Virus record (IMG/VR): IMGVR_UViG_3300029723_000002
Location: 1 to 64,000 of that record
Source of the DNA: a virus
Strand: one strand, 5' to 3'
Length of the DNA: 64,000 nucleotides
The position numbers and the translations under genes are program-made. Under the pieces are notes generated by a model, which saw only the letters and a list, made by a program, of their open reading frames with translations, was not told the origin of the DNA and did not search any database. Within the stretch, counting starts at the first letter, position 1; every line of letters begins with the position of its first letter. Shown piece by piece: positions 9,559 through 62,756 of the stretch.

Positions 9559-10443
9559 TTAGAAGTTATTTAAATTATTATAGATTTGAGTAATTATCAT
9601 CTTAAATTGTTCAATCGATAAATTATTTTTCATCATATTAACAATTAATGTACAAATATATACATTGCCCTTAATATATCCTTTAGAAGAATCAATTCTA
9701 TCTATTGTGGGATATGTTAACTTGTCTCTAAAATTGTTTTTAAATTCAGTGCCGCTGTATATACATTTATTATCTTGTTTATCTAATAATTCTCTAATGT
9801 ATTTAATGTCTAAATTATATTCATAGCCTTGGCTTTGGGCATTTTGTTTGCTCCTTTTATATAATCTTTCTTCTAAAGGTATTATGTCACGTAAATGTTT
9901 GTTATAACAGTCTATACATATAGACTTTGATGTATTAAACTTTTTAACGTCAGATTCACCACAGTAAATACATTTTGGTTCTGTTTTACTTGATCTGTTA
10001 TATATCTTATATCCCTTGTCATCCTTTTCTAAATGAGCATTAGACTCAATCGTTTTCTTAACATAAGATATTCCTCCCAAAAGTTGGTTTCTAGTATATC
10101 CTTGATTTTCAATTTTCTTATCCTTAACAGTGTTATAGGTTACTACTTCACCTCATTCTGTAAGTTGATCTAATAATTCGATTAAGTATTCTTTAGATCT
10201 TATATCTAAATTCTCTTCTCAAATAAAATTTGGACAGTCTAATACTTTATTAATTTTAATGTGTTTTGCATAACCATTGGTAGTGCAATCTTCAATTAAT
10301 TTCATACGTTGAAGTTCTTTTATGCTGTTTTTAAAAAAATCATTTTTAGCAACAGCATTTAAATTGGTAAATGTAAAATCGGCATATCCATCTTTCTCAA
10401 AGGCAGATAATGCCATTAATGCTAATTTTTGTCTCGTTTTCAT
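9559..10443 (-). CDS. HNH homing endonuclease (free-standing), 2 in-frame TGA
   Basis: The C-terminal region has the Cys pairs CIYCG...CIDCYNKH and TIDRIDSSKGYIKGNVYIC (HNH motif). Track ORFs 10219..10443 and 9559..10080 are in the same frame and were joined through TGA at 10219-10221 and 10153-10155. All 46 intervening codons were checked. Confidence 0.6.
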
Positions 10444-10666
10444 AAGTTATTAAATTTATAATTACAAATTTATACAAAATATTTTAGTTTTCCTAATATA
10501 ACCCTCCCCATATAGTATACACATGAGGTTACTCTACATTTTCATCCCCCGCCCCTTTCAAATGGAAAACGCTTTCAATTTTTAAAGAAAAATTCCTAAA
10601 AAATAAAACTGAATTTTGAAAACCAAATCTATCCATTCACTATTTATACCATTAACTTATTACATT

Positions 10667-17627: not shown

Positions 17628-18451
17628 TAACAAATAAATTCATTTTTTATTTGGTATAGATAAAGCTTTTTAATATCTTTGTATACAATAAATATATAAA
17701 GAATATGTCAAAAGTAAAATGAACCAAAGAACTACTTGAAAAAATAGTACCTGAATGTTATTCATATGCAGAGGTGCTAAGAAGAGTGGGATTAAAGCCT
17801 ATGGGTAGTAATCCAAAGACTTTAATTAAAAAATTAAATGAATTTAACATAGATTATTCACATTTTACAGGACAAGGATGAAATAAATACGGACATCCAA
17901 GTTTTGGAAACTCAGGAAAAGCACTTACAAGTGTGTTGAATAAAAATAGTTCTTTGCCTTCTTCAAAGGTTAAAGAAAGATTACTAAATAATCACTTGAA
18001 AGAGAATAAGTGTGAAGTATGCGGTATTACTGAATGACAAGGTTCTCCAATTATATGTGAATTACATCACATTAATGGAGACACAACTGATAACAGGATT
18101 GAAAATTTACAAATATTATGTCCTAATTGTCATAGTCAAACAGATAATTTTAGACGCAGAAATGTGAAAAAGGTAGTGAGCACTCAGAAGGAAACTTCTG
18201 ATGTGAATGTAGGCTAATTCGGCGAAGGTATCAGCCTTATAAATGATAATAACGCCGAGCTAAGTAAGTAGAAGGAATTTTCGTTTTTGTTCGTAATTCT
18301 TAATATATCGTCCAACGGGAGTGTATGTATACTAGCACCGACGCGATAACTTCTACTTTAAATGTGTAGAGACTATACACCTACCTCCTAAACTGAAAAG
18401 CATGGAGAAGACATAGTCCACGTAATTAGCTGATTCTCAGGCTATTACGAG
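17628..18451 (+). mobile_element. group I intron (824 nt) carrying an HNH homing endonuclease ORF
   Basis: Core elements seen downstream of the ORF: P4 pairing ttcggcg...cgccga, an R-like gtagagactata and an S-like gaagacatagtcca. The last nucleotide is G. Confidence 0.6.
17705..18217 (+). CDS. intron-encoded HNH homing endonuclease (170 aa), 3 in-frame TGA = Trp
   Basis: MSKVK W TKELLEKIVPECYSYAEVLRRVGLKPMGSNPKTLIKKLNEFNIDYSHFTGQG W NKYGH...CEVCGITE W QGSPIICELHHINGDTTDNRIENLQILCPNCHS. The GQGWNK and EW tryptophans are encoded by TGA. Confidence 0.7.
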
Positions 18452-22478: not shown

Positions 22479-23291
22479 ATGAAAAAGATTTTATTGTTGA
22501 TGGCTATTGCTATCATTGGATTTACAAGTTGTACAACCATTGACTCTGGTAGTGTTGGAGTTAAGTTTTATAAATGGTCTTCTGATGAAACTGAAAAGGG
22601 CGGTGTAAAAGGAACCTGTAAAGGTTTTGTATTTTATAATCCCTTCTCCCAAGATATCTACGAATATCCTACATTTGTACAACGCCGCAGTTATGAACCC
22701 TTTCAAGTAAATGCTAAAGATGCTGCTATTTTTGAAATGACTCCTACTCTTGCTTATCGGTTGAACCCTGATATGATTGAGCAAATTTTTGTAAAGTACC
22801 GTAAGCCTATTAATGAAATTGAAGAAGGATATATTCGCACTTGTATTTACGAAGCCTATAGAACTTGCGGGAATACTTATACTTCTGATTATTTAATGTC
22901 AAACCGTGGAGAGTTTGAATCTGAAGTTCGCAAACGTCTTGAAAAATCATTGATGGAAGAGGGTTTTATTGTTGAAGAGTTTACTACTCAAATTGTTCCT
23001 CCTAAATCTCTGGTACAGGCTATTGATCAGAAAAACGCTGCTATACAAAATGCGTTACGTGCTGAAAATCAGGTAAAAGAAGCAGAAGCAAATGCTAAAA
23101 TTGTAGTAGCAAAAGCAGAAGGCGAAGCTAAAGCGTTGAAGATTAAGGGCGATGGTGAAGCTTATTATAATAGGGTTGTTTCTGCTTCACTTAATGATCT
23201 TCTTGTAAGACAAAATGCTGTTGAAAAATGGAATGGTGCTCTCCCTGTGTATTCTGGAGGTGGAGCTGTACCTATGATTAAAGTCGAGTAA
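22479..23291 (+). CDS. SPFH/band-7 (stomatin/HflC-like) lipoprotein
   Basis: Lipoprotein signal MKKILLLMAIAIIGFTSC. The coiled-coil NAAIQNALRAENQVKEAEANAKIVVAKAEGEAKALKIKGDGEAYYNRV is typical of the C-terminal part of SPFH proteins. Confidence 0.5.
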   Translation: MKKILLLMAIAIIGFTSCTTIDSGSVGVKFYKWSSDETEKGGVKGTCKGFVFYNPFSQDIYEYPTFVQRRSYEPFQVNAKDAAIFEMTPTLAYRLNPDMIEQIFVKYRKPINEIEEGYIRTCIYEAYRTCGNTYTSDYLMSNRGEFESEVRKRLEKSLMEEGFIVEEFTTQIVPPKSLVQAIDQKNAAIQNALRAENQVKEAEANAKIVVAKAEGEAKALKIKGDGEAYYNRVVSASLNDLLVRQNAVEKWNGALPVYSGGGAVPMIKVE

Positions 23292-28855: not shown

Positions 28856-29261
28856 GGGGGATACAGGTATTGACTAGTATATCGAAAGTTATTAATCAAG
28901 CTGAGTTTGAATAATACTCATTAAACAGATTCAAAAAATAAACGCAAACAAAACTATTTCGAGAGCTATTAACAAGGTTAAGAACTCTCTCGCTCCTATG
29001 ATGACTCTGACTCGTTCTGAAGTTGCATATGCAGCGTAGGCTTGTATCGCCTTATAATAGATACAAACTGGGTTTCTTTGTTTAGACATAAAAACAAAGT
29101 GGTGGAAGTTGACCTAACTGGTCAGCCCTACTGTTCCATTGACGTTGGGAACTAAAAACTAATGCTATCGAGGTGTGGACAACCAGAAATGTATCCTAAG
29201 CTTGTAAGTATGTTAATAATAATAGAATACTAACACATGAGTTCGAATCTCATATCCTCCA
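28856..29261 (+). ncRNA. ssrA: candidate tmRNA (SsrA-like), about 406 nt
   Basis: The 5' gggggat pairs with the 3' atcctcc to give an acceptor stem with G3:U70 (Ala identity) and discriminator A. T-arm atgag-ttcgaat-ctcat. An internal reading frame starts at GCA (28944), 88 nt from the 5' end, and ends ...SEVAYAA-TAG at 29037-29039. The element sits in a 718-nt ORF-free, GC-richer intergenic region. Confidence 0.5.
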
Positions 29262-29282
29262 CTAAATCAATAAGTTACATAT

Positions 29283-29976: not shown

Positions 29977-30978
29977 ATGAATTTAAGATGTAATTCCTGT
30001 GATGGAATATATGGAAGTTTAGATATTCGTCTTACTAAAAGATGTTATAATAAATGTCCATTTTGTATTGAGAAAAAATCTAGTGTAAGTACAAGAAGGA
30101 AAGATCCTGATACTGAAAAAATGTTAGATAATATTCTTAATATAAATCAGGATTTAAGAAGTACTTTGATTCCTAATCAGGATATAGAAAGTGTTTTAAT
30201 CTTAGGCGGAGAACCATTACTTTATTTTAAGGATTTAATAAATCTTATTCACGAAATTAAGTTACTTAGTAAGTTAAAAGTCTATGTAACTACTTCTTTA
30301 CCTGCAGATCTTGTTACATATCCTCAGTTTGAAGAATTAGTAACTAGAGCTGATGGAGTTAATATCTCTTATCATTCAGGATGGAAAGGAACTAACGCTG
30401 CAGTATATTATGGATCAAAATATAATACTTACTTAGAAACCAAAAAGAAAGAATATCTAGTTAAGATTAATAGATTTAATTCAAATAAGATTCGAATTAA
30501 TCTTAATCTTAGTAAATGTGGTGTAAACTCATTAAATGGTTTAAGGTATGCTCTCAATACTTTTGCAGAATTAGGCTGTAATTGGGTAAAGATCAATGAA
30601 CTTCAAGACAGTCCTGAATACTATGTATCTTTTGAGGATCTTACTGAAGAGGATCTACCATCACCATATGCTCATGGATGTGAATCTGTTCTTTATTATC
30701 AAGGACTCACATATTCTCTTGATTCCAATCTAAGTCCAGTAAAACCTGCTCAGTATCATCGTGAAAACCTTCCAGATTGGTTAAAAGGAATTAAATTACC
30801 AGATCTCATTACTCTTAAAAGAAGTTGTTTTCTTACTGAGCCAAGTCGAGAAGCAACTTTATCTGATTTAACTAAATTAATTCTTAGAAAAGTGTTACCT
30901 TTGTCTAAGAAAAAGTTCAGAGTTATGTATGAAGATGGATCGGTTTATAATAGTTGGTTAAAAAATGAAAAAGAATAA
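29977..30978 (+). CDS. radical SAM domain protein
   Basis: CYNKCPFC is a CX3CX2C motif and ILGGEPLLY matches the GGEP motif (QueE/anaerobic RNR activase-like). Confidence 0.55.
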   Translation: MNLRCNSCDGIYGSLDIRLTKRCYNKCPFCIEKKSSVSTRRKDPDTEKMLDNILNINQDLRSTLIPNQDIESVLILGGEPLLYFKDLINLIHEIKLLSKLKVYVTTSLPADLVTYPQFEELVTRADGVNISYHSGWKGTNAAVYYGSKYNTYLETKKKEYLVKINRFNSNKIRINLNLSKCGVNSLNGLRYALNTFAELGCNWVKINELQDSPEYYVSFEDLTEEDLPSPYAHGCESVLYYQGLTYSLDSNLSPVKPAQYHRENLPDWLKGIKLPDLITLKRSCFLTEPSREATLSDLTKLILRKVLPLSKKKFRVMYEDGSVYNSWLKNEKE

Positions 30979-39661: not shown

Positions 39662-40144
39662 ATGAAACCATTAAAAAAGAATATTATCTTCTTAGATATT
39701 GATGGTGTTCTTAATTATACAAATTGGTATTCTAATCCTAGAAACTTTGGAAATATTAACGGTCAAGAAGGAGACTTAGATCCATTTTGTATTGAACGAG
39801 TTAATATATTAGCTAAAATAACTAATTCTTATATTGTTATATCTAGTGACTGGAGGTATGATGAGAGACAATGTCGAATTAGACTGGAAAAAGCTGGTTT
39901 AACAGCTTTAATTATTGGATTTACCCCAATTCATCTATGGAATGAAAAGCAGTTAGATAAATCTAGAGGAGCAGAAATCCAAAGTTGGTTAAATAATAAT
40001 CTATGTATTGTAAATAATTATGTTATACTAGATGACAGAACAGATATGTTAGAACACCAACTTAGAAATTTCATATATGTAAATAGTCATATAGGATTAT
40101 CTGATGATGATATAAATGAAGCTATTATTATTTTATCTAACTAA
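39662..40144 (+). CDS. HAD-superfamily phosphatase-like protein
   Basis: IIFLDIDGVLN matches HAD motif I (DxDG[VT]L). Confidence 0.45.
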   Translation: MKPLKKNIIFLDIDGVLNYTNWYSNPRNFGNINGQEGDLDPFCIERVNILAKITNSYIVISSDWRYDERQCRIRLEKAGLTALIIGFTPIHLWNEKQLDKSRGAEIQSWLNNNLCIVNNYVILDDRTDMLEHQLRNFIYVNSHIGLSDDDINEAIIILSN

Positions 40145-41030: not shown

Positions 41031-41102
41031 GCATTGTTGGTGTTAGTGATAGCATATGTGACTTCCAATCACAAGGGGAGAGTTTGAATCTCTTACAATG
41101 CT
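41031..41102 (+). tRNA. tRNA-Gly(UCC)
   Basis: Acceptor gcattgt/acaatgc. Anticodon stem tgtga/tcaca with loop cttccaa. T-arm gagag-tttgaat-ctctt. Confidence 0.5.
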
Positions 41103-41117
41103 CAAATAATAAGTAAT

Positions 41118-41480
41118 ATGAAAAGTTGAAATTTTATAACACATAAACAAAAATTACACTGAGGATATAGGATCTTACTAATGGAGAATCAAGGTAAAGC
41201 ATTTGGCAGCATTTACTGATATTTTGATGAGCCTAGAGATCTTTATATTGATATGATTAGTGTTTCAGAAGAAAGTCAACAAAAAGGATTGGGCACATTC
41301 TTATTGAAGAAACTAGAACACATTTGTGTTAATGATTTGTCTGCTGAAAAAATTTCTTTATGAACATTCAAGAATAGTTGAACAAAAAAATGGTATAATC
41401 GTTGTGGATATAAGGATGCAGAACCTAATGAGTCAGAACCAGAAACAATTTGAATGGAAAAAAGAATAAATTCATTTTAA
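41118..41480 (+). CDS. GNAT family N-acetyltransferase (120 aa), 6 in-frame TGA
   Basis: YIDMISVSEESQQKGLGTFLLKKLEHICVNDLSAEKISL W TFKNS W TKK W YNRCGYKD matches the GNAT motif A/B pattern. The frame was checked from ATG 41118 to TAA 41478-41480. The gene is invisible in the ORF track. Confidence 0.55.
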
Positions 41481-44746: not shown

Positions 44747-45563
44747 TATTGAAGATGTTTGGTTGTATCCAACTGAGATTGCATCAGAATCAGTAGATTA
44801 TAATATATATAATAAAGACGGTAAGTTACCTGTGTTTACTTCCATTGAGGAACCACTAAAACTTGAGGAGTATATTGAGTTAGGTAAACTTGGTATTAAC
44901 ACGATTATCCCACAAAGTATTAGTTTGTGGGGACGGTTATCAATGATTCATCAATCATTTATAGATTTATCCTATCACGAATTAAATAATTTGTTATCAA
45001 GCGACAATTTTACCTCTGATTTTGATAACACAAAAACATACTATATTTATATAGAATATACTCCTTATAATGGTAAACAGTTTTTTCATACTTGTAAATA
45101 TATTAAACGACAATTTGGAGGAAATGTGTTATTAATGGTATCTAATATTGGCTCGCCTGAATTATATTTAGAATGTTGTAAAACAGGCATTGATTATGTT
45201 ATTCTTGTAGATTCTTCTCGATATGTAGATCTTAAATTCTCATATCCATCTGGATCATTAATTGCTGATTGTAAAAGCAAGCAATGGGAAATTCAAGAAA
45301 CTATTAAATCAAGTCAGAATGCAGGAATTTTTTGTCCTTATACAGCAGCTTCTATTATTCATATCGAACACACATTAAACCAGATTCCAAGTTTTAGAGG
45401 TTTAGTTTTAGGAGCTGATTATGTTATGACGAAATTTAATTCCTCAAAACTTGACTATAATACGCATGTTAAAGCTATAGAAACCAAATTATTTAATATA
45501 ATGCAGTATGGAGGAATTAGAACTTTATCCGATTTTGAAAAAATTAAATATATTATTAAATAA
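44736..45563 (+). CDS. hypothetical protein
   Basis: Track ORF. Confidence 0.45.
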   Translation: MKFSIEDVWLYPTEIASESVDYNIYNKDGKLPVFTSIEEPLKLEEYIELGKLGINTIIPQSISLWGRLSMIHQSFIDLSYHELNNLLSSDNFTSDFDNTKTYYIYIEYTPYNGKQFFHTCKYIKRQFGGNVLLMVSNIGSPELYLECCKTGIDYVILVDSSRYVDLKFSYPSGSLIADCKSKQWEIQETIKSSQNAGIFCPYTAASIIHIEHTLNQIPSFRGLVLGADYVMTKFNSSKLDYNTHVKAIETKLFNIMQYGGIRTLSDFEKIKYIIK

Positions 45564-46741
45564 TGGAAGATAGAATTATATATTGTAAACTAACTGAAAA
45601 AAGTTCTAGAAAGGTTTGGGTTATAGAACCTAAACAGTTTTATCCTGATAAAACCGAAATATATCCCCTATCTGTTTCCTTAGCGTCCACTGTGATTGAC
45701 CGAATAGAACATCCAATAGGATGTGTTATTGGCCTTTATAGTAGTAAATTAACTCTAGCAAGTACTAAAAAGTATTATTCATATTCTGGAGAAAAATGTG
45801 CGGAAGTCTATGACGATCCAGTATCAGGACCTGGATATCAAAGATATTTAAGAAATCGAGACAAAACTCCAGAAGAAATTGCAGAAGAGGAAGCTAAAAT
45901 AAGTAAAACGTTACTATCTCATCTACTTAGAGACACTCAGACTAAACCTCTAACAATTGAACAACATGGATTCTATATTGAAGACGATAAGTATTATCTT
46001 CTAGTTCGGAATATTAAAAAAGTAGTTAATACTTTGTTATTAGGACCAACTGGTAGTGGTAAAACCGAGGTTATAGCTTTAGTTGCTAAGCAATTAGGTT
46101 TAGAATGTGAATATTATGACATGGGTGCAATGGCTGATCCTATTGCTGATTTGTTAGGTGTTCATAGGTTAGAGAATGGTAATTCTATTTTTGATTTTGC
46201 TAAGTTTTGTGATGATATACAGAAACCTAAGATAATCATTCTTGATGAGCTATCTAGAATGCCGCACACTTGTGCTAATATTATTTATCCGTTATTAGAC
46301 AACCGACGTTATCTTCCTGTGGAAATAGCAGGTTCAAAAGATGTTAGGCGTATACCTGTACATCCTAAATGTGTGTTTTTTGCTACTGCAAACATCGGTA
46401 TTGAGTATACTGGTACTTCAACTATGGACAAGGCGTTGACGAATCGTTTCTTTCCTATAGAGTTAGATTATTTGAATGCAACTAATGAAACTAGTGTTCT
46501 TGTAAAAAGATGTGGAATTGCTAAATCAGATGCTAAGATTATTTCTAATCTTGCTGAATCTATTAGAAAAATGAAAAGAAACTCTGATTTAGAAACCGCT
46601 ATTTCAACGCGAGAAACTTTAATGATTGCTGATTTAATCTATGATGGATGGGAACTTGTTAATGCAGTCAAAGCCGTATTACTGCCACTTTACGAACAAG
46701 ATGACAGAGAAAAAATTATTAAACTTATAATGAGTAAATAA
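45563..46741 (+). CDS. MoxR-like AAA+ ATPase (AAA_5-type)
   Basis: Walker A GPTGSGKTE. Walker B IIILDELSR. Sensor region FFATAN. Confidence 0.55.
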   Translation: MEDRIIYCKLTEKSSRKVWVIEPKQFYPDKTEIYPLSVSLASTVIDRIEHPIGCVIGLYSSKLTLASTKKYYSYSGEKCAEVYDDPVSGPGYQRYLRNRDKTPEEIAEEEAKISKTLLSHLLRDTQTKPLTIEQHGFYIEDDKYYLLVRNIKKVVNTLLLGPTGSGKTEVIALVAKQLGLECEYYDMGAMADPIADLLGVHRLENGNSIFDFAKFCDDIQKPKIIILDELSRMPHTCANIIYPLLDNRRYLPVEIAGSKDVRRIPVHPKCVFFATANIGIEYTGTSTMDKALTNRFFPIELDYLNATNETSVLVKRCGIAKSDAKIISNLAESIRKMKRNSDLETAISTRETLMIADLIYDGWELVNAVKAVLLPLYEQDDREKIIKLIMSK

Positions 46742-48636
46742 TGGCTGTTACTGATTGGTTTGGAAGAAATAAGAATAGGAATTATATATCAGAACATGGT
46801 AATCATAAGTTACAATGGGATTTTGGAATGGAGAATTCCTATTCTTCATTCTTTGCTCCAAACTTAGATAAACAAAAATTAATAAAAGACTCTTATAAAC
46901 ATGCTTGTGATATTAGGGACATTATGGAGGTCCCGAAATCAATTAAAGTTAGTTTATTTGCCCAACCTAGTTCTTATAGTACCTCCAAAAAAGTTGTAAT
47001 TTCAACTGATGTTTTTGATGATTCGGCGTTGAATAATAATCAAAAATTAGATATCTTTTTAGGATTAGCAGTTCATGAGTTCTCCCATATTTTATACACT
47101 GACTTAGATTCAGTAAAGAACTACAAATCAGACGATTACATTGGACAGTTAACTAATATAATTGAAGATGAGAGGATTGAAAGTAAGGCAACATATTTCT
47201 ATCCAGGATACGCTAACTTCTTAAAAGAAGTAAAGCGTTATTATTTTCAGAAATGTTTCAAGGAAGAACATTTAAATGATGTAACTGACGTTTTGCAAAC
47301 AGTATTTTACATTATTAGATATCCAGAAAATGTAAGTGAAGACATTTATAATCGTCATTTAGTTTTATTTGAAAAAATCAAAAATGTTATGTCTTCTTTG
47401 GGTAAATCATTTGTAGAGTCTAATTCAAAAGCAAAGAAAATTTGGAAATTAATTTGTGATTATTTTGAACTCCCACCAGAACCTCCAACAAATAATAAAG
47501 AATATTCTCAAGAAGGAGAACCAGATGAGGGTGATAATAATGATAACAGTGATATGAGTCAAGGAAATGAATCTTCTGACAATCGCTCTGGTAAAAGTGA
47601 GAGTAATTCAACTTCTGAAGGCTCTAATTCCAAAGGCTCTAACTCAGCAACGTCTAAACCTGCTGAAACAGGCACTGTAAAGCCAAGATCTGAAGAGGAG
47701 TTAAAAGACTTTGCAAATTCTATAGCGAGAAGAATCTCTAAGGTTACAAGCAGTTACACTACTCAACGTAGTTCTGAAATTAGAACATCATGGGATGCAG
47801 AAGAATATGCTGGAGATTTAGTAAGGGAGAGTGATGATTTAGTATTGCATCGTCAGGAAAATAATCAGGAAAACTATAATGAAGTTAAGACTCAGTTAGG
47901 AGTTTCTATTACACCACTAGTTAATGCTTTTAGCAAATTTTTTGTTGAGCAAAAATATAATCTTAGTGGGTTAAGAAGAGGTAAACTTGATACGGGAAAA
48001 CTTGCTGAAGCTTATCAAAATGTTGAGACTGTTTATACACAAACATTCGAAAGAATAACGCCAGGTTTAGATTTATGTCTGTTAATTGATGAATCAGGTT
48101 CAATGGACGGAAGCAAAATTGATACTGCTCAACAAGCTGCAATCTTATTGAATGAAGTTTGTTTAAAATTACCTAAATGTAACTTGTTTATTTATGGTCA
48201 TACTGCTGATATTGTATCATCTGGCGATACATTTATTAATGTTTATCGAGACTCTTGGAATAAGAATAAGTATTCTTTAGGATCTGTAAGAGCAATGTGT
48301 AACAATAGAGATCATGAAGCAATCGAGGAAGTTTATAAACTTGTAAGAAAACAAACTAATAACCCTCTTTTAATGTTTGTAATATCTGATGGATATCCTG
48401 CTGCACGAGGTTTACTTAATTTATCAGAATCAATAAGGTTGGTAAAAAAGACAGTTGACTGTATAGAATCAAGAGGTGACACAGTTATTTGTCAGATAGC
48501 TATTGAAAGTGATATCGATCCTCAAAAAATGTTTAATAATTATATTCATCTTACAGATTTAGATACATTTCCTAGAGATTTATCTAATTATGTACTAAAA
48601 ACTCTTATATCAAAACTTAAAAGAATTGATATATAG
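46741..48636 (+). CDS. multidomain protein: N-terminal HExxH metallopeptidase motif, acidic Ser-rich linker, C-terminal von Willebrand factor A (VWA) domain
   Basis: LAVHEFSHILY. Low-complexity EGEPDEGDNNDNSDMSQGNESSDNRSGKSESNSTSEGSNSKGSNS. MIDAS-like LLIDESGSMDGSKIDTAQQAA. Translationally coupled to the upstream MoxR-like ATPase. Confidence 0.55.
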   Translation: MAVTDWFGRNKNRNYISEHGNHKLQWDFGMENSYSSFFAPNLDKQKLIKDSYKHACDIRDIMEVPKSIKVSLFAQPSSYSTSKKVVISTDVFDDSALNNNQKLDIFLGLAVHEFSHILYTDLDSVKNYKSDDYIGQLTNIIEDERIESKATYFYPGYANFLKEVKRYYFQKCFKEEHLNDVTDVLQTVFYIIRYPENVSEDIYNRHLVLFEKIKNVMSSLGKSFVESNSKAKKIWKLICDYFELPPEPPTNNKEYSQEGEPDEGDNNDNSDMSQGNESSDNRSGKSESNSTSEGSNSKGSNSATSKPAETGTVKPRSEEELKDFANSIARRISKVTSSYTTQRSSEIRTSWDAEEYAGDLVRESDDLVLHRQENNQENYNEVKTQLGVSITPLVNAFSKFFVEQKYNLSGLRRGKLDTGKLAEAYQNVETVYTQTFERITPGLDLCLLIDESGSMDGSKIDTAQQAAILLNEVCLKLPKCNLFIYGHTADIVSSGDTFINVYRDSWNKNKYSLGSVRAMCNNRDHEAIEEVYKLVRKQTNNPLLMFVISDGYPAARGLLNLSESIRLVKKTVDCIESRGDTVICQIAIESDIDPQKMFNNYIHLTDLDTFPRDLSNYVLKTLISKLKRIDI

Positions 48637-48692: not shown

Positions 48693-48763
48693 GCCTTTGT
48701 CGTTCAATGGTAGGACAGCGCTCTTCAAAAGCGTGTATGTGAGTTCGAATCTTGCCAAGGGTG
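48693..48763 (+). tRNA. opal suppressor tRNA: tRNA-Trp-like body with anticodon UCA (reads UGA as well as UGG)
   Basis: Hand-folded, 71 nt. Acceptor gcctttg/caagggt. D-arm gttc-aatggta-ggac, as in Trp tRNAs. Anticodon stem gcgct/agcgt with loop cttcaaa (U33, UCA, A37). T-arm gtgag-ttcgaat-cttgc. Discriminator G73, which is the Trp identity base. Confidence 0.7.
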
Positions 48764-48793
48764 CTAACTGATTAAAAACTAACAAGTTATAAT

Positions 48794-50136: not shown

Positions 50137-50349
50137 ATGAAGACTTTAAATGCTATAGCATTAAGAGACTATATTGACGATAACGGTGTTTTTATTTGTA
50201 CTCAAGGTCAAAATGTAACCATTATTAAAGATAATAAAGATTGTTTGGTTAAAACCTCTTGTGGATGGTATGAGGCAGACGTAGAGGATTTTGAAGTAAA
50301 AGAACTGAATAATGAGGTATCAGGAGTGTTTAAAAAGAGGATTTGATAA
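50137..50349 (+). CDS. hypothetical small protein
   Basis: Track ORF 50137..50346 ends at TGA, which is followed immediately by TAA. Confidence 0.4.
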
Positions 50350-50821
50350 AGAAGAAGAATTTGCAAAGTTATTAGTTAGTACCTGTGGTGGAGTTACTCA
50401 AAAGGCAAATCCTAAAGAGGATATACATGATCATATAGATTTGTGGTGAATCATTAATGGAAAGACTATTGGATTAGATATTAAGGCACTTAAAAAGCAG
50501 TCTAGAAATGATAAAGTTTATAGCAATAATATTCATTGAATAGAACTAAAAAACGTTAATGGTAAACCTGGTTGGCTTTTTGGAAAATCTGATTATATAG
50601 TTTTTGAAGGAGTTAACATGTGGATTGTTGTAAAAAGAAAAATATTATTAACCTTTCTTAAACAAAACGTTAACTTTAATACTATTCATGAATCACTTAC
50701 TAATTTAAACGCATATGAATTATATCGTCGGAGTGGCAGAAGTGATTTAATTCTTAAAATCCCAGTAGAGGACCTACTTAAATTAAATTCAAAAATTATT
50801 ATAAAAAATGAAGCGACTTAA
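50312..50821 (+). CDS. nuclease-like protein (169 aa), 3 in-frame TGA
   Basis: MRYQECLKRGFDKEEEFAKLLVSTCGGVTQKANPKEDIHDHIDL W W IINGKTIGLDIKALKK...NNIH W IELKNVNGKPGWLFGKSDYIVFEGVN runs in frame into track ORF 50618..50821. The D...D-x-K-like spacing suggests a PD-(D/E)XK fold (inference only). Confidence 0.4.
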
Positions 50822-51308
50822 TATAGCTCTTGTTGCACATGATGCTAGAAAAAAGGAATTAGTTGATTGGGTTAAATTCAATATACATTCACTATATAAT
50901 CATCACATTATTGCTACTGGTACCACTAGTAAATTACTTGGCAATATTATGGTTAAACAAGTTACAGAGACAGATTGGAGAGAGAAAGAATATTTTGTAA
51001 ATAAATATCTCGATATAACTCCTGTTCTTTCTGGTCCTCTTGGAGGTGATCAAATGATTGGTGCTATGATTGCAAAAGGACAAATTGATGTATTAATTTT
51101 CTTTTGTGATAATCTTATTACACAGGGACATCAAACTGATATTTCAGCATTAACTCGACTAGCTTCGCTGTATAATATTGCATTTGCAACAAATCGCACT
51201 ACTGCTGATATGATTCTTACCTCTTCTTTATTTGCAAATGAAAGTTACCAACCCATTAAAAATGATTTTAGTACATATTTAAACAGACCATTATATGAAA
51301 AAAGCTAG
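50808..51308 (+). CDS. mgsA: methylglyoxal synthase homolog
   Basis: NIALVAHDARKKELVDWV...IIATGTTSKLL...VLSGPLGGDQMIGAMIAKGQIDVLIFFCDNL...ALTRLASLYNIAFATNRTTADMIL aligns motif by motif with E. coli MgsA (HIALVAHD, ATGTTG, SGPMGGDQQ, IDVLIFFWDPL, ATN..TAD). Confidence 0.7.
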   Translation: MKRLNIALVAHDARKKELVDWVKFNIHSLYNHHIIATGTTSKLLGNIMVKQVTETDWREKEYFVNKYLDITPVLSGPLGGDQMIGAMIAKGQIDVLIFFCDNLITQGHQTDISALTRLASLYNIAFATNRTTADMILTSSLFANESYQPIKNDFSTYLNRPLYEKS

Positions 51309-51804
51309 ATTTTATTATCCTAAACCTGTGGAGTTTATTGATGGTGTGGTTTTCCCAGACACTGATAATATCATTATAAATCCTAAAAAAACTTATGGTA
51401 AACGTTATACTATGGTTTCTGTGTATAACGATGAAAATGATAGTATTAGATTTGGTGTAGCTACTTGTTGTCCTGAAGATAAATTTGAAAAAGCAATTGG
51501 AAGAAAAATTGCACTAGAAAAAGCTGATTCTGAGCCTTTCCTGACTATAGATAATGCAACTGAAGAAATGGAAAGAACAGGTTTAACATTCTCAGAACTA
51601 GTAATGAAATGTCTCAAACGTCACACACTTTTCTTACTTACTTCAGATGAAAAATATAATAAATACTTTAAGTCAGACACTCGTGTACCACTAAGGAATT
51701 TTAAAGAATTGACCAATCTTGAAGACGCCGAAGAAGAGATAATACAGGATCAAATTGATAAGATAATTTTTGCTATGAAAGGTGATGGTTGATTTTGTAC
51801 TTAA
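51295..51804 (+). CDS. hypothetical protein
   Basis: Track ORF, extended through a TGA at 51790-51792 to TAA at 51802-51804. Confidence 0.45.
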
Positions 51805-51955
51805 TGGAAAGATTATTCTTGAGGATCACAACTTAAATAAATTTCAAGAAGATTTTGCTCAACTACTATATAAATATCAAACTGTTTTCAAGGGAGAAAT
51901 AAGAAGTTATAGTTTTGAGGAATGCGAAATAATAGAACCAGAAGTTAGTGATTAA
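51785..51955 (+). CDS. small protein (56 aa)
   Basis: MVDFVLNGKIILEDHNLNKFQEDFAQLLYKYQTVFKGEIRSYSFEECEIIEPEVSD*. Confidence 0.3.
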   Translation: MVDFVLNGKIILEDHNLNKFQEDFAQLLYKYQTVFKGEIRSYSFEECEIIEPEVSD

Positions 51956-52388
51956 AATTTATACTGATGGGAGTTATAAACCTTCTACAAATCAAGGAGG
52001 GTATGCTTCAATCATTATTAATGATGATAAAATAGTTAAAATTTTACAACAAGGATATATAAATACTACAAACAATAGGATGGAAATTATGGGAGTTTTA
52101 AAGGCGTTAGAGTTTTTTAAGACTCCTCAAGATATTATTATCTATTCAGATTCAAGTTATGTAGTAAGTAGTATGTCTAATAATTATGTACAGAGATGAG
52201 TATCAGATAATGATACATCAAAAAAGAACATGGATTTGTGATCTAAGATCCTAAACTTATCAAATTTTCATAATGTAAAGTTTGTATGAGTTAAGGGTCA
52301 TAATGATAATAGATGAAACGAACTAGCTGATATTTATGCAAATATATCAGCTACTGTCGAAAACCCACAAATAGACTTAGAAGACTAA
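51948..52388 (+). CDS. rnhA: ribonuclease HI (146 aa), 4 in-frame TGA at conserved Trp positions
   Basis: IKIYTDGSYK...NNRMEIMGVLKALEF...IIIYSDSSYVV...VQR W VSDNDTSKKNMDL W SKILNLSNFHNVKFV W VKGHNDNR W NELADIYA matches YTDGS, TDS.Y, DLW and W.WVKGH...NE.AD of RNase HI. The start appears to be GTG at 51948. The stop is TAA at 52386-52388. Confidence 0.75.
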
Positions 52389-52798: not shown

Positions 52799-54463
52799 AT
52801 GAAAATGAAAACTGAAGCACCAAGTATTGAAAAATTAGATCTTAAAAGACGTAAATGTACTTTAAGTGACGATATGATTCGATTGATGCTAAGACAGTTA
52901 ACTCATGAAATGTACAATCATAACTTGTATAGAAGTTTTGCAAACTTTTATGGAGTTAGAGGTTTTCAAGTACTAGAACAATATTATATTGATCGTGCTG
53001 AGGAAGAAAAACTGCATCATGATTGGGTATATGGATATTTAAATGAATGTGATGCTGAATTTATTTATCCCGAAATTCCTGCCATTTCAGAAAAGTTTGA
53101 AGATATGATTACTCCTTTCCAATTAACAGTTGATAAGGAAATTCAAACAACTATGGAAATTAATGAAATGGTTGATTTAGCTTGTGACACAAGCGATTGG
53201 GCAACTTTCAATTGGCTTAATGGACATGACAAAGAAAAAGGCATGTTAGTTAATGAGCAGGTAGATTTCTGCCTGGCTATATAGTAATATATAGTAAGAA
53301 CAAACCAAAAACGGTGGAGGCTGCGATGCTAATACCGTGCTAATTTAGAACTTAAAAAATTCTAAACAGTGTAACGCGTAGATTTTGAACCTAATTATTA
53401 ATAGTTTTAAATTTGTTTGTGAGTTTAGTAAAGAATTATTATCTTTGTACTGAACCTTTAAAAGAATTAATATGGCTAAAATTAAAGAAACAAACAAATT
53501 TTATGAAAATAAGATTTTTCAATCAAAATCTTATGGAGATTTTAAAGTATTAAAATATAATAATACTTTTAATGTAGAAATAGAGTTTTTAACTACTGGA
53601 TATAAAACTTCAGTACAGTTGAGTAATGTTAAATCTGGTAGTGTCAGAGACCCTTATTATCCAATAGTTTATGGTGTTGGGTATATGGGAGAAGGTCCTT
53701 ATAAGTCTCGACCAGTACAAAATGGCCCGCAGAGCAGATGTTATAAAATTTGAAAAGAAATGTTGGGAAGATGTTATTGTAATAGCACTTCAAGTTTTAT
53801 AAATTATGGAGCTTGTGGAGTTGTTGTATGTTCAGAGTGGCATAATTTTCAAAACTATGCAAAATGATATTATAAAAACTGCATAAACGAATCTTATTGT
53901 GTTGATAAAGACTTTTTAGGAAAAGGTCTTAAAATTTATAGTCCCACGACTTGTTGCTTTATTCCTGAAGAGATTAATGCACAGTTAACATTAAGACAGT
54001 CAAGGAGAGGAAAATTTCCATTAGGTGTAAGACCCTGTGGAAAAAAATATCAAGCACAATTAAACAAAAACTCTAAAAAAATTCCATTAGGTGTATTTAA
54101 CACAATTGAAGAAGCATTTAACGCATACAAAACAGCTAAAGAAACGTTTTTGAAAGAGTTAGCTGATAAATATAAAGCTACTATTTCTGAGGAAGTTTAT
54201 TATGCATTAAAAAATTTTCAAATAAATATTAATGATTAGAATAAAATAAATCCAAGAGTGGTTTGCCCCTATATTTTAGGGTGAAAATGTACGCTGAACT
54301 ATAGTGAAATGAAGCTATAGAAGTTAAGATAAAAAGCTTAACGATAACAAATTGAGAAGAAGAAAATATCAGTCGAACAGCGTTGGATATAGCAGAGTCT
54401 GAAGGCAGTTGGCTTAGAAAAGAGAAATCTATCATGAATGCATATAAGGGTGATACAGATTAA
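52799..54463 (+). CDS. ferritin-like protein, split gene: exon 1 52799..53262, group I intron, exon 2 54355..54463
   Basis: Exon 1 ends ...ATFNWLNGHDKEKGMLVNEQ-V(gt|). Exon 2 supplies (a)EEENISRTALDIAESEGSWLRKEK... The spliced product matches the bacterial ferritin C-terminal region (E. coli FtnA ...[25 protein letters not shown]...). Unspliced, the ORF would end VDFCLAI*. Confidence 0.6.
53263..54354 (+). mobile_element. group I intron carrying an HNH-AP2 homing endonuclease
   Basis: The 5' exon ends with U and the intron ends with G. It shares the motifs gtgtaacgcgtag and ccaagagt...aaaatgtacgctgaact and the 3' terminus gataacaa(a/t)ttg with the intron at 60996..62095. Confidence 0.55.
53472..54239 (+). 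CDS. intron-encoded HNH homing endonuclease with AP2-like DNA-binding domain (255 aa), 2 in-frame TGA
   Basis: ...GYMGEGPYKS...RCYKI W KEMLGRCYC...NYGACGVVVCSE W HNFQNYAK W ...RPCGKKYQAQLNKNSKKIPLGVFNTIEEAFNAYKTAKE matches the HNH_3 plus AP2 architecture of phage homing endonucleases (I-HmuI-like). Confidence 0.55.
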
Positions 54464-54478
54464 TTAAAATAGCTAATA

Positions 54479-54808
54479 ATGTCTCTAATAACTGATTTAG
54501 GATTAGATCAACAATATACTACAGATCGTCCAATACTGTATTCTATACCTATAATATTTCCTAAAGTTATTGACAAAGAATATATAAGTTATTTAGTTAG
54601 TTTAGGTGTTACTTGTATTTTAGATACATCTGATCCTAGGTGGCATGACGCACCATTAAGTTGGATTTCTTTGTATTTAACAAATGGTCAGAACATGCAT
54701 GACATTAACACTTATTTGTCAAAAGGCGATTTAATACCATTAAGTACTGATAAGAAAAGAATATGCATTAACTTTTGTGGACTAAAATTAATACAAGAAA
54801 ATGATTAG
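54479..54808 (+). CDS. hypothetical protein, first of a tandem paralog array
   Basis: LGLDQQYTTDRPILYSIPIIFPKVIDKEYISYLVSLGVTC. Confidence 0.45.
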   Translation: MSLITDLGLDQQYTTDRPILYSIPIIFPKVIDKEYISYLVSLGVTCILDTSDPRWHDAPLSWISLYLTNGQNMHDINTYLSKGDLIPLSTDKKRICINFCGLKLIQEND

Positions 54809-55136
54809 AGATTTAAATCTATTGGGTTTAGACGAACAATATACAGCTCTTGGCCCACAGATCATGAATCTTCCTGTAGTATTCCCAAAAACTACTAACA
54901 AAGAAGCAATACAATATCTTACAAGTTTAGGGTACACATGTGTATTCGATCAGATATCAAAAAATCCAGATCAACGCCTAGCTATTGGGATTTGTATATT
55001 TATAAGCGAAGGCTTCACTCTATTTGATGTTGAAAAATATTTAGAGGATAATGAACTAGTACCTTTGGATTCTAATAGGAAAAATTTATTCATAAATATA
55101 AATGGATTATATAAAATGAGGTTAAACGATGGATAA
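54801..55136 (+). CDS. paralog
   Basis: LGLDEQYTALGPQIMNLPVVFPKTTNKEAIQYLTSLGYTC. Confidence 0.45.
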   Translation: MIRDLNLLGLDEQYTALGPQIMNLPVVFPKTTNKEAIQYLTSLGYTCVFDQISKNPDQRLAIGICIFISEGFTLFDVEKYLEDNELVPLDSNRKNLFININGLYKMRLNDG

Positions 55137-55440
55137 TTTGAATTTATTAGGTTTAAAACAACAATACTATAAGAAATCTTGACCAGAACAAATTTTTATA
55201 TTTCCTCAAACTACTAACTTTGATAGCTTAAGATATCTGCTTAGTTTAGATTATGTTTGTGTAGTTTCTGGGCTTTTTGATAGTTTAATTACAGAAGGTA
55301 AATCTAGAGGTACAATTTATATTTATGATGTTGATCAATTAGATTCTTATAAAAACATGTATCTAGATCTTAAGCTAGAACCAGTTCCAGAAAAAATTAA
55401 AGAAAGAATAATACTATCCCTATCGTTAGAACAAATCTAA
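55129..55440 (+). CDS. paralog (103 aa), 1 in-frame TGA
   Basis: MDNLNLLGLKQQYYKKS W PEQIFIFPQTTNFDSLRYLLSLDYVC... Confidence 0.4.
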
Positions 55441-55459
55441 CAAGTATATATGCTAAGTT

Positions 55460-55681
55460 ATGGAAACCCTAAATATTAGAGATTACATATGCTCCTATGA
55501 TACATCTGTAGAAGCAGCAAGAAAAGTTGTAGATAAGATTATTCAATGGTGTAATAAGTACGAATGTACTGGAGGAGAAATGCTTTGTCAAAATGATGAT
55601 TGTATAATTGAAAGTCCTTATCTAGTTGCAGACATTATTGATAATATACTTAAATTTGGACATAAGTTAAATGATGATTGA
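55460..55681 (+). CDS. hypothetical small protein
   Basis: Track ORF. Confidence 0.35.
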   Translation: METLNIRDYICSYDTSVEAARKVVDKIIQWCNKYECTGGEMLCQNDDCIIESPYLVADIIDNILKFGHKLNDD

Positions 55682-55958
55682 GGAAATTAATCATATATAT
55701 GTAATTCCAAGTTATAAGAAGGAGTATTTTATTTTTCCACAAACTGTTGAATACGACACACTTAAATACTTGATCGATATGGGTTTTATTTGTATTGTTG
55801 GAGGATTTATTAACAGTAGTAAATTACAACCTATATGTCTATATAATAGATATGTTCTAGATAAATACAGGAAGTGTGATCTAGTGTCTATACCTGAAGA
55901 TATGAAAGAATTTTGTATTAAAGATGTATATGGTTTTGAACAATTATCAGATGATTAA
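55671..55958 (+). CDS. paralog-like small protein
   Basis: YFIFPQTVEYDTLKYLIDMGFIC. Confidence 0.4.
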   Translation: MMIEEINHIYVIPSYKKEYFIFPQTVEYDTLKYLIDMGFICIVGGFINSSKLQPICLYNRYVLDKYRKCDLVSIPEDMKEFCIKDVYGFEQLSDD

Positions 55959-60912: not shown

Positions 60913-62756
60913 ATGGCTATCGAATTACCAAAAACAAAAATTCCTGCAGCAACCCAAGATCCTAAGTATCTGATTCTCTTTGGTTTGCCAAAGGTCAATC
61001 TGGCCCATTAGTTTAGTAATAGACTAAGTTGTATCGGGGAAAGTCGATGAATGCTAAAATTTTCTTACTTTGGTATTGGAATATACGGAAAATTTAACTA
61101 TATTTGTGTAGTTAAATTAAAAATTATATGAAAATAAACCAATTAAAGTATACAGAACAAGAAATTAAAAAGTTTGGTGAATATTATAAGTTAGGCCATT
61201 CTTTAAAAGAAACTGCAGAATATTTTAATGTTAATTATCACACATTAAAACAAAATTTGATACGATTTGGATATAGAACTCCAATAAAAAAATTAAGTAA
61301 CCAAAGAGTAACTAGTATTACTTATTTTGATTGTATTGACACTCATGAGAAAGCCTATTTTTTAGGACTGTTATTTGCAGATGGATACATTTCAAAAACT
61401 CCTTATGGAGTTAATATTGGAATTGCTCTTCAGTTACAAGATAAATATATCTTAGAGCATTTAAAGAGAGAAATTAATGTGTCAAATAAAATTTCAGATT
61501 ATAAAAACAGTTCAAAATTTTCTGTAACATGCCAACATATGTATAAGATACTAAGGAGTTTAGGGATAAAAGAAAATAAATCACATCTAGATTACAAAAT
61601 TCCTAATATTGATGAAAATTTTATCAATTCTTTTATACTTGGATATTTTGATGGAGACGGTTGTATAACTATAAAATCTACGGGCTATAGCGTTGTTTCT
61701 ATTTGCTGTAACTCTAAATTATTTTTAGAAGATATACAAAAATATTTAAATAAGTTAAATATTGCAACCCGACCTATTACTACAGAAAAAAGAATGCATA
61801 ATAATTTATTTGTTCTATATCTTTCAAAGAAAGAAAATCAGTTAAAATTTATGAATTTAATTTATAAAAATAGTAATATATTTTTACAAAGAAAATACCG
61901 TAAATTTTTGCAAATATCGAGCTAACTATTATAATAATATATAATAGTAGTGTAACGCGTAGGAAGTGAACCTGTTTTACAGAATATAATCTTCCCAAGA
62001 GTCTCCGAAACTTTTATTAAAAGTTTAAAATGTACGCTGAACTTATAGGAAACTATAAGAACTATAGGATAAAAAGCCTATAGGATAACAATTTGTGGAA
62101 AAACTACAATTTTAAGCACTCTAGAAAATAATCTAATTTTAGATACTGAATCAGGAAGTGATTATATTGATGCTTTAAAGGTTAAAGTATCTAGTGTAAA
62201 GGATATTAAGGAAGTTTGTAAAGCTATTATTGAGGCCAAAAGACCTTATAAGTACATTACTATTGATACTGTTACTGCATTGGAAGAAATTGTTAAACCA
62301 TTAGCCCTTAATTTATATAAAAACTCTCCTGTATTTGGAGAGAGGTTTGCTGATATAACTGATGTTACTGCTCTTCCTAATGGTCAGGGATATATGTGAA
62401 GTCGACAAGCTCTTGAAATGGTTATTGACATGGTATCTAAATGTGCTCCAAATATTATTTTATGTGGTCATGTTAAAGATGTATCATTAAATGAGGGTCT
62501 TGATGGCAGTGTTAAGGATTTAGACCTGACAGGTAAAGTTAAACGTATTCTTTCTGCTAGAAGTGATGCTATTGGTTTTTGTCATCGCGATACTAATGGT
62601 AACCTTTGTATTAATTTTGGTGGGGATGGTGAGATCCTTACTGGTTCAAGATGTCAACACCTAGCAGGTAAAGATATTATTGTAGCAGAGCGTCAGGAAG
62701 ATGGTTCATTTGTTTCACATTGGAATAGGATTTTTCCTTCATTAAGCAGTAAATAA
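60913..62756 (+). CDS. Sak4-like (AAA_24/RecA-like) recombination ATPase, split gene: exon 1 60913..60995, group I intron, exon 2 62096..62756; 1 in-frame TGA in exon 2
   Basis: Exon 1 is MAIELPKTKIPAATQDPKYLILFGLPK(gt|). Exon 2 is (t)GKTTILSTLENNLILDTESGSDY... The splice restores the Walker A GLPKVGKTT. The 5' exon ends with U and the intron ends with G. Confidence 0.55.
60996..62095 (+). mobile_element. group I intron carrying a LAGLIDADG homing endonuclease
   Basis: Its 5' segment resembles that of the intron at 53263 (caatctggccca... against agatttctgcctggct...). Shared core motifs gtgtaacgcgtag (61955) and aaaatgtacgctgaact (62029). Ends ...gataacaatttg. Confidence 0.55.
61128..61925 (+). 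CDS. intron-encoded LAGLIDADG homing endonuclease (265 aa)
   Basis: Two LAGLIDADG-type motifs: LLFADGYISK and ILGYFDGDGCITIK. Confidence 0.65.
   Translation: MKINQLKYTEQEIKKFGEYYKLGHSLKETAEYFNVNYHTLKQNLIRFGYRTPIKKLSNQRVTSITYFDCIDTHEKAYFLGLLFADGYISKTPYGVNIGIALQLQDKYILEHLKREINVSNKISDYKNSSKFSVTCQHMYKILRSLGIKENKSHLDYKIPNIDENFINSFILGYFDGDGCITIKSTGYSVVSICCNSKLFLEDIQKYLNKLNIATRPITTEKRMHNNLFVLYLSKKENQLKFMNLIYKNSNIFLQRKYRKFLQISS

Follow-up and report, generated by a model that had tools for sequence, protein, structure and literature searches.

Methylglyoxal synthase (MGS, encoded by mgsA) converts dihydroxyacetone phosphate (DHAP) into methylglyoxal and inorganic phosphate (Pi). The Escherichia coli enzyme is a homohexamer that is inhibited by phosphate and behaves cooperatively through a link between Asp20 and Arg150. 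The same fold occurs in non-catalytic MGS-like domains, which lack the catalytic residues of MgsA and are embedded within larger proteins. Among phages, the known auxiliary metabolic genes (AMGs) of central carbon and phosphate metabolism include talC, CP12, zwf/gnd, and pstS of cyanophages. The classical roles assigned to bacterial MgsA are the recycling of phosphate for glyceraldehyde-3-phosphate dehydrogenase (GAPDH) and the relief of sugar-phosphate overflow (PMC12291648). In the searchable literature, we found no dedicated study of a phage methylglyoxal synthase; the sole mention recovered is an automatic AMG call from a virome, on a 120-kb scaffold from Lake Baikal (PMC8066274). Here, we characterize an mgsA gene in positions 1 to 64,000 of IMG/VR virus record IMGVR_UViG_3300029723_000002. 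This stretch of 64,000 nucleotides (nt), hereafter the window, belongs to a gut phage of ~160 to 180 kb in which TGA is recoded to tryptophan.

The gene is a member of the known MgsA family, in its Bacteroidales subtype, and of the known class of host-derived AMGs. With the solved enzymes of E. coli (1B93, 1EGH, and 1IK4) and other sources (1VMD, 6PHE, 6F2C, 2X8W, 1WO8, and 8U2V), the encoded protein shares the fold, ~40% identity, and the active-site residues, but it differs from them by an 18-residue β-hairpin between α2 and β3 and by five substitutions in the catalytic loop. With chromosomal MgsA of the Bacteroidales it shares 56 to 65% identity, an FFCDNL..QGHQ.D loop, a LYNIAFATNRTTADM block, an enlarged and variable spacer, and the same pattern of NCBIfam scores, whereas the phage genes are set apart by a longer spacer (mode of 34 versus 27 residues), five fixed positions, a surrounding block of phage genes, and lower GC content. 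Like the cyanophage AMGs, mgsA encodes a host-derived enzyme in a large phage of lytic type, is under purifying selection, is patchily distributed, and could plausibly redirect carbon or phosphate. It differs from them in enzyme, pathway, and host group (anaerobic gut Bacteroidales), and its product is toxic. The phage itself resembles the TGA-recoded gut phages of the Jade and Agate type in its traits: a genome of ~150 to 200 kb, a gut habitat, a TGA suppressor tRNA, and in-frame TGA codons arranged in blocks. The study that described this recoding pattern in large gut phages does not mention methylglyoxal (Borges et al., bioRxiv 10.1101/2021.08.26.457843). We favor the reading that a catalytically competent MgsA of Bacteroidales type was captured by an ancestor of large TGA-recoded gut phages and has been kept as an accessory AMG for the conversion of DHAP to methylglyoxal and Pi. 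From the sequence evidence set out below, we place the probability of this reading at roughly 55%.

A full-length MgsA homolog with a conserved active site

The product of the open reading frame (ORF; Table 1) matched the MgsA family with scores far beyond chance. It passed the NCBIfam equivalog model for methylglyoxal synthase (NF003559; 164.1 bits versus a cutoff of 84) and matched the MGS domain of Pfam (PF02142; E = 3.5e-10). A sequence search of the PDB returned 11 solved MGS sequences and nothing but methylglyoxal synthases. The best match was the Thermotoga maritima enzyme (1vmd; E = 9.8e-36), and those of Elizabethkingia (6phe) and E. coli (1b93; E = 3.6e-27) were also recovered. Unlike the non-catalytic class, which is represented by the allosteric domain of the carbamoyl phosphate synthetase (CPSase) large subunit and the N-terminal domain of PurH, the window protein stands alone and has its catalytic residues. 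As judged from its sequence, it is a genuine homolog of MgsA (EC 4.2.3.3), full length and stand-alone. A first-pass annotation, which read the letters of the window before any database search, had proposed a near-complete MgsA homolog inside a mobile element. The family and PDB matches bear out the homology, and the element is a large phage.

Residue equivalences were taken from an alignment to E. coli 1b93, in which the numbering is shifted by 8 residues up to the insertion, together with a table of alignment columns, and conservation was assessed over 58 relatives. All catalytic and phosphate-binding residues of the E. coli enzyme are retained (Table 1), with Ser65 and Gly66 corresponding to S75 and G76 of the window protein; K15, T37, T39, T40, S75, and G76 are the phosphate-binding residues. 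The roles of these residues are assigned from published work on the E. coli enzyme and from the existence of structures named for the H98N and H98Q mutants. The catalytic loop has substitutions of Bacteroidales type (W90C, P92N, P97G, D99Q, and P100T). Across the 58 relatives, F98, F99, C100, N102, H108, and D111 are invariant, and D101 is nearly so; H11, D12, and D81 likewise vary little or not at all. In the C-terminal tail, R160 lies within a nearly invariant YLNR motif, one position off E. coli Arg150, and D12 is retained. The first-pass annotation had judged the catalytic Asp and His positions to be present, and they are intact. The equivalents of Asp71, His98, and His19 are present as D81, H108, and H11, and so are the motifs ATGTTS, SGPLGGDQ, IDVLIFF, and ATNRTTAD; only the first motif needs correction, from HIALVAHD to NIALVAHD.

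The same annotation had described a 23-residue insertion, which is real but smaller in net terms. The spacer from TGTT to SGP is 34 residues long in the window protein and 16 in the E. coli enzyme, so that ~18 residues have been gained on balance, and the string originally quoted takes in residues that replace the ancestral linker. We built an AlphaFold2 model from the 58 relatives (mean predicted local distance difference test [pLDDT] score, 83.3; predicted TM score [pTM], 0.77). In this model, the enlarged segment forms a β-hairpin in place of the short connection from α2 to β3, and its strands (residues 48 to 55 and 61 to 67; pLDDT of ~88 to 90) run into the strand that precedes SGPLGGDQ. 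When the model was searched with Foldseek, the 26 top PDB matches were all MGS (E values of 1e-10 to 1e-13; target-relative TM scores of 0.74 to 0.83), with the E. coli, T. maritima, and Elizabethkingia enzymes as the best. Allosteric domains of CPSase were only distant fold matches (E of ~1e-5; 17 to 18% identity). In α/β folds of this type, helix-to-strand connections lie opposite the active site. Because the α2-to-β3 connection faces away from the active site, the modeled hairpin would lie outside catalysis. It is probably a tolerated surface decoration, or else a contact with another subunit or a partner, rather than a catalytic element. Its length and sequence vary in phages and Bacteroidales alike.

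A Bacteroidales-type gene of probable host origin

A search over 1.84 billion representative proteins separated two groups of MGS, one with a canonical FFWDPL...PHDPD loop and a distinct one with the loop FFCDNL..QGHQ.D. Two conserved blocks, LYNIAFAT and NRTTADMI, then served as queries in a scan of bacteria in which each species was represented by a single genome. Among the best 80 of the 126 matches, nearly all were from Bacteroidales, at 56 to 65% identity to the window protein. They included Segatella bryantii DSM 11371 (on a 3.5-Mb contig), Xylanibacter ruminicola KHT3, Prevotella sp. P6B1, and S. copri, as well as Leyella, Paludibacteraceae (metagenome-assembled genomes [MAGs]), Rikenellaceae, and Muribaculaceae. 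The S. bryantii gene sits between the ammonium transporter gene amt and ftsZ and is therefore chromosomal. Bacterial mgsA loci have a GC content of 38 to 59%, versus ~30% in the phage. Two low-GC contigs among the 80 carry a phage-like mgsA and seem to be of phage origin, placed in bacterial MAGs by a binning error; one was binned as Lactobacillus johnsonii (L063; 2.5 kb; GC, 0.29) and the other as Phocaeicola dorei (L142; 143 kb; GC, 0.33).

The FFCDNL..QGHQ.D signature was found in the 78 bacterial loci of the best 80 recovered. We define a Bacteroidales-type subfamily by this loop signature, the LYNIAFATNRTTADM block, and a TGTT-to-SGP spacer of more than 16 residues. All three traits occur in the window protein, in the 78 bacterial loci, and in the phage loci. 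The spacer measures 16 residues in canonical MGS (mode, 16), 23 to 40 in Bacteroidales (mode, 27), 29 to 56 in the window's phage clade (mode, 34), and 31 to 52 at other viral loci; a few metagenomic representatives combine the FFCDNL..QGHQ.D loop with a 16-residue spacer. The implication of the first-pass annotation that the insertion marks out the phage copy was thus not sustained, as the enlarged segment and the altered catalytic loop are both found in chromosomal mgsA of Bacteroidales. Since the insertion and the loop signature are common to Bacteroidales chromosomes, capture of a host-type enzyme appears to explain the phage gene better than repurposing does.

Only five fixed differences separate the phage clade from the bacteria (L73V, Q83M, E90Q, V112I, and I154F, in window numbering), and none of them is a known active-site residue. 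In neighbor-joining trees from which the hairpin was excluded, the group of Bacteroidales plus phages had bootstrap support of 91/100, and the window's phage clade had support of 99/100. Other viral mgsA sequences are scattered among the bacterial ones and occur in unrelated gene contexts. This scattering suggests several captures of mgsA, although some of those contigs may not be phages. Across 14 of these other viral loci, no recurrent neighbor was found besides mgsA itself; their PHROG matches were to replication and nucleotide genes, which fits phage without proving it. Two long IMG/VR contigs (L053 and L054; 345 and 412 kb) have a Bacteroidales-type mgsA beside a gene for an NAD-dependent DNA ligase. 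Their ORF coverage under the standard code is low (0.64 to 0.70), which may point to another recoded code.

Within the phage clade, the ratio of nonsynonymous to synonymous substitution rates (dN/dS) was 0.11 for the core, 0.04 for residues 71 to 140, and 0.65 for the hairpin, at a synonymous divergence (dS) of ~0.8. The core is thus under strong purifying selection, which is relaxed in the hairpin. A fast-evolving hairpin that tends to be longer in phages than in bacteria might be expected if the protein had become a non-enzymatic MGS-like protein whose hairpin binds a partner from the host or the phage. The models for such a role would be the regulatory MGS-like domains of CPSase and the binding of Crh by Bacillus subtilis MgsA. 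The distant fold matches to CPSase and a phage sub-lineage with altered active-site residues (see below) also speak for such repurposing. However, every catalytic residue is conserved in the window protein, residues 71 to 140 are nearly frozen, the hairpin is present and variable in chromosomal host genes, and the five fixed differences avoid the known active site. We regard a non-enzymatic role as very improbable.

Distribution and accessory status of mgsA in phages

A scan of IMG/VR identified 62 loci with mgsA. At ~48 of these (27 distinct genes), mgsA lies in the same syntenic block, which runs from an upstream ORF through mgsA and a downstream ORF to RNase H and then ferritin. The contigs are 13 to 179 kb long, mostly 90 to 179 kb, and have ~30% GC. 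The first-pass annotation had called for a survey of related phages; in this one, mgsA occupies the same site in more than 45 viral contigs related to the window, and the mgsA sequences form one clade. In the protein database, well over 100 clusters are 60 to 100% identical to the window protein; one of them bears the name "MAG TPA: methylglyoxal synthase [Caudoviricetes sp.]", and one has been seen on at least 1,000 contigs. An index of an assembly collection lists the identical protein in 492 blocks. A 229-amino-acid (aa) variant (P0001) was considered as evidence of an alternative start and rejected, as it is a fusion with the upstream ORF through an indel or frameshift on a single contig. 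There is no family for the window protein in PHROGs v4 and no viral structure with the MGS fold in BFVD.

A tblastn search of GenBank phages yielded distant matches only (≤44% identity); most of these are short, lack annotation, and may represent host contamination. If the window gene were of the same kind, it would be bacterial DNA that was mis-assembled or mis-binned, or else a neutral gene of recent capture. That explanation is effectively refuted by the recurrence of the same gene at the same place on more than 45 contigs, which were assembled independently from several sources and have a phage-like GC content of ~30%. In addition, mgsA overlaps the phage genes on both sides by 14 nt, and a dS of ~0.8 with a dN/dS of 0.11 amounts to long retention under selection.

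Despite this retention, mgsA is not universal. Using the neighboring ferritin-like protein as a query, we found nine contigs of the same phage family (L146 to L154) in which the flanking genes are kept and mgsA is absent. The two flanking ORFs are immediately adjacent in L146 (6186-7033), whereas L147 to L152 have other small ORFs in the gap. Because mgsA is missing from nine syntenic relatives, it is an accessory gene. Being flanked by phage genes on both sides, having a host homolog, being under selection, and not occurring throughout its family, it has the features by which AMGs are recognized. Another sub-lineage has different cargo beside mgsA. In the closest relatives, a gene for an Fe/Mn superoxide dismutase (SOD) lies ~1.3 kb upstream of an identical mgsA (2112-2702 in L155, L156, and L157; 8112-8699 in L001, L002, and L030), between the SLT lysozyme gene and a 202-aa ORF; the window and L158 lack it. 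With this varying cargo, including the presence or absence of SOD, the region around mgsA is a hot spot where host-like accessory genes come and go.

The company of SOD and ferritin raises the idea of an oxidative-stress module, in which MgsA would bypass the oxidant-sensitive GAPDH, and the ferritin-like protein and, in the closest relatives, the SOD would limit damage in an anaerobic host. A ferritin-like gene does lie 1.5 kb downstream of mgsA in all family members, and a study of Salmonella reportedly ties the methylglyoxal pathway to oxidative stress (PMC10266609). Yet SOD co-occurs with mgsA at the strain level only and not in the window, ferritin is retained by relatives without mgsA, so that the genes form no obligate unit, and adjacency within a variable hot spot may be incidental. 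We consider such a module distinctly unlikely.

The recoded phage genome around mgsA

The window has ~30% GC. ARAGORN predicted 12 tRNA genes and a transfer-messenger RNA (tmRNA), and the combination with Rfam raised the number of tRNA genes to at least 15. One of them is a suppressor tRNA with the anticodon UCA, which ARAGORN labels SeC (Table 1). When TGA was read as tryptophan (code 4), ORF coverage increased from 0.62 to 0.78 and the genes tiled. The RNase H gene has four in-frame TGA codons, three of them at conserved tryptophan positions. TGA codons are nearly absent from a plus-strand block at ~13.6 to 50.1 kb and frequent both in a minus-strand block at 0.4 to 10.4 kb and after 50.3 kb. 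In mgsA, tryptophan is always encoded by TGG (47/47 codons in the 27 distinct sequences), while neighboring genes use TGA. We rejected a code-4 bacterium as the source of the window. TGA use is specific to blocks, the gene content is dominated by phage-type genes and homing endonucleases, and related sequences come from viral contigs of 90 to 180 kb.

Neither flanking ORF has a Pfam or PHROG match, and both are syntenic in related phages, including those without mgsA. Genes around mgsA encode a CobS/CobT-like AAA+/VWA pair, an SLT lysozyme, RNase H, the ferritin-like protein, helicases of the SNF2 and DnaB types, a PD-(D/E)XK exonuclease, a radical SAM protein, and HNH and LAGLIDADG endonucleases. 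For two window proteins other than MgsA, the nearest cultured relatives are in Bacteroides phage BS162P1, crAss-like phages, and a Cellulophaga phage. The nearest cultured relative of the CobT-like protein is in BS162P1, with 30% identity across 99% of the protein. These relatives point to a host in the Bacteroidota.

Further features of the window are listed in Table 1. The ferritin-like gene is kept across the whole phage family. Downstream of it, four tandem paralogous ORFs of ~100 aa, with N termini such as LGLDQQY, LGLDEQY, and LGLKQQY, have no Pfam match. The intergenic stretch before them contains the sole megablast match of the region, 38 nt identical to two crAss-like phages (cr7_1 and cr131_1), in which it is unannotated. 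The predicted RNA fold of this stretch is mildly better than that of shuffled sequences (z = -1.97), and Rfam has no family in the 54.2- to 54.5-kb intergenic region, which could be a shared regulatory element or a small RNA.

Table 1. Features of the mgsA locus and of the rest of the window (window coordinates; empty cells, no entry)
Feature	Position	Strand	Evidence or description
mgsA coding sequence	50808-51308	+	166 aa, ATG start, TAG stop, no in-frame TGA; ORF list, HMM, PDB and model matches
H11, D12, K15 codons (E. coli His19, Asp20, Lys23)	50838-50852	+	1b93 alignment; H11 and K15 invariant, D12 nearly so, in 58 relatives
T37-G38-T39-T40 codons, phosphate-binding TGTT loop (E. coli Thr45, Thr47, Thr48)	50916-50927	+	
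Enlarged α2-β3 segment, residues 46-69 (the insertion of the first-pass annotation)	50943-51014	+	β-hairpin in model; residues unaligned by HMMER versus 1vmd and 6phe
SGPLGGDQ motif, S75 to Q82	51030-51053	+	Contains catalytic Asp81 (E. coli Asp71)
Catalytic loop FFCDNLITQGHQTD, F98 to D111	51099-51140	+	D101, H108, D111 = E. coli Asp91, His98, Asp101
Upstream flanking ORF	50312-50821	+	169 aa under code 4, 2 in-frame TGA; 14-nt overlap with mgsA start
Downstream flanking ORF	51295-51804	+	169 aa under code 4; 14-nt overlap with mgsA stop
RNase H gene	51948-52388		
Ferritin-like protein	52799-53284		Pfam Ferritin, E = 1.6e-12
Intergenic region, 240 nt	54240-54470		38-nt identity at 54319-54356
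Four tandem paralogous ORFs	54479-55958		
CobS-like AAA+ ATPase and CobT-like VWA protein pair	45563-48636		
Suppressor tRNA, anticodon UCA	48693-48764		ARAGORN
tmRNA	28856-29264		Rfam RF00023, 73 bits; ARAGORN-predicted tag peptide ends AYAA
Radical SAM protein	29977-30978		
HAD domain of "Swiss Army Knife" RNA repair proteins	39662-40144		
GNAT acetyltransferase	41034-41480		
SPFH/Band-7 protein	22479-23291		
HNH-type homing endonuclease	17705-18217		
LAGLIDADG-type homing endonuclease	61128-61925		

Possible roles during infection

In an infected cell, the phage MgsA would add flux through the methylglyoxal bypass, from DHAP to methylglyoxal and Pi. The most likely benefit would be the release of phosphate that is locked in triose phosphates. 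Upper glycolysis could also be kept running when its lower part is limited by low Pi or by inhibited GAPDH. The freed phosphate or flux would help to meet the high demand for nucleotides that comes with replicating so large a genome; we take phosphate recycling or overflow relief to be the most likely benefit because it fits a phage that makes much DNA.

Several observations weigh against this reading. The window protein scored 127 bits with the older model TIGR00160, below its trusted cutoff of 146.9. We attribute the shortfall to the insertion, which splits the match; chromosomal MgsA of Bacteroidales (Segatella and Prevotella) also falls just under that cutoff, at 142 to 143 bits, and passes NF003559. 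In the structural model, residues 101 to 110 of the catalytic loop have low confidence (pLDDT of 54), and the loop differs from characterized enzymes at five positions. One phage sub-lineage (L020, L021, L022, and L052; mgsA at ~10001-10486) carries D12N and G76E, at the equivalents of E. coli Asp20 and Gly66, and one of its members (L022) is additionally without three residues of the TGTT phosphate loop. Constraint may be relaxed in this sub-lineage, with decay or change of function, and the activity is perhaps not needed everywhere. A Pfam scan that covered almost every code-4 ORF of 80 aa or more in the 64-kb window revealed no methylglyoxal-detoxifying partner (glyoxalase, DJ-1, or aldo-keto reductase), so a pure flux-bypass role would depend on host enzymes. 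Finally, the Bacteroidales are the probable host as judged from related sequences, and the activity of any phage MgsA is predicted.

The absence of a detoxifying partner nearby is also what would be expected if methylglyoxal itself were the effector. It could arrest host growth, translation, or DNA replication as a form of shutoff, or harm neighboring cells or competing phages, and phosphate balance would then be beside the point. Diversion of DHAP to arrest or poison the host was the role suggested in the first-pass annotation, and the sequence data are compatible with it as well as with phosphate release or overflow. By its residues, the enzyme appears to be fully active. With tryptophan encoded by TGG only, mgsA could be translated before the suppressor tRNA acts. 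In Prevotella ruminicola, "glucose toxicity" is reported to act through methylglyoxal. Bacteroidales can accumulate and secrete methylglyoxal via MgsA, and in Tannerella forsythia, a member of this order, knocking out the MgsA homolog abolished its production (PMC12070732). On the other hand, methylglyoxal harms the machinery of translation and replication on which the phage, too, depends, and with the residues for phosphate binding and inhibition kept, the host Pi pool would probably still regulate the enzyme. Moreover, E. coli that overexpresses mgsA reaches only ~0.08 mM methylglyoxal (PMC12291648), and the gene is dispensable in close relatives of the phage. We hold an effector role to be possible, though on the unlikely side. 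More doubtful is a methylglyoxal effector deliberately directed at the host, its neighbors, or rival phages, with the fast-evolving hairpin tuning regulation or partner binding. If true, one of the most widespread lineages of gut phages would encode a weapon that acts through a toxic metabolite.

Under the reading that we favor, an accessory AMG of Bacteroidales origin, a glycolysis-branch enzyme would be added to the AMGs of gut Bacteroidales phages, and infection could add to methylglyoxal production in the gut. For annotation, the lesson is that the apparent insertion did not arise as a phage invention but characterizes the Bacteroidales lineage of MgsA. Why bacteria retain an enzyme that makes a toxic electrophile is debated, with phosphate recycling and the relief of sugar-phosphate overflow as the usual proposals. 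Retention of mgsA under selection in phages, together with its loss in close relatives, would be independent evolutionary evidence that an extra MgsA pays under some conditions, and the natural variants with and without the gene offer a means of testing which conditions favor it.

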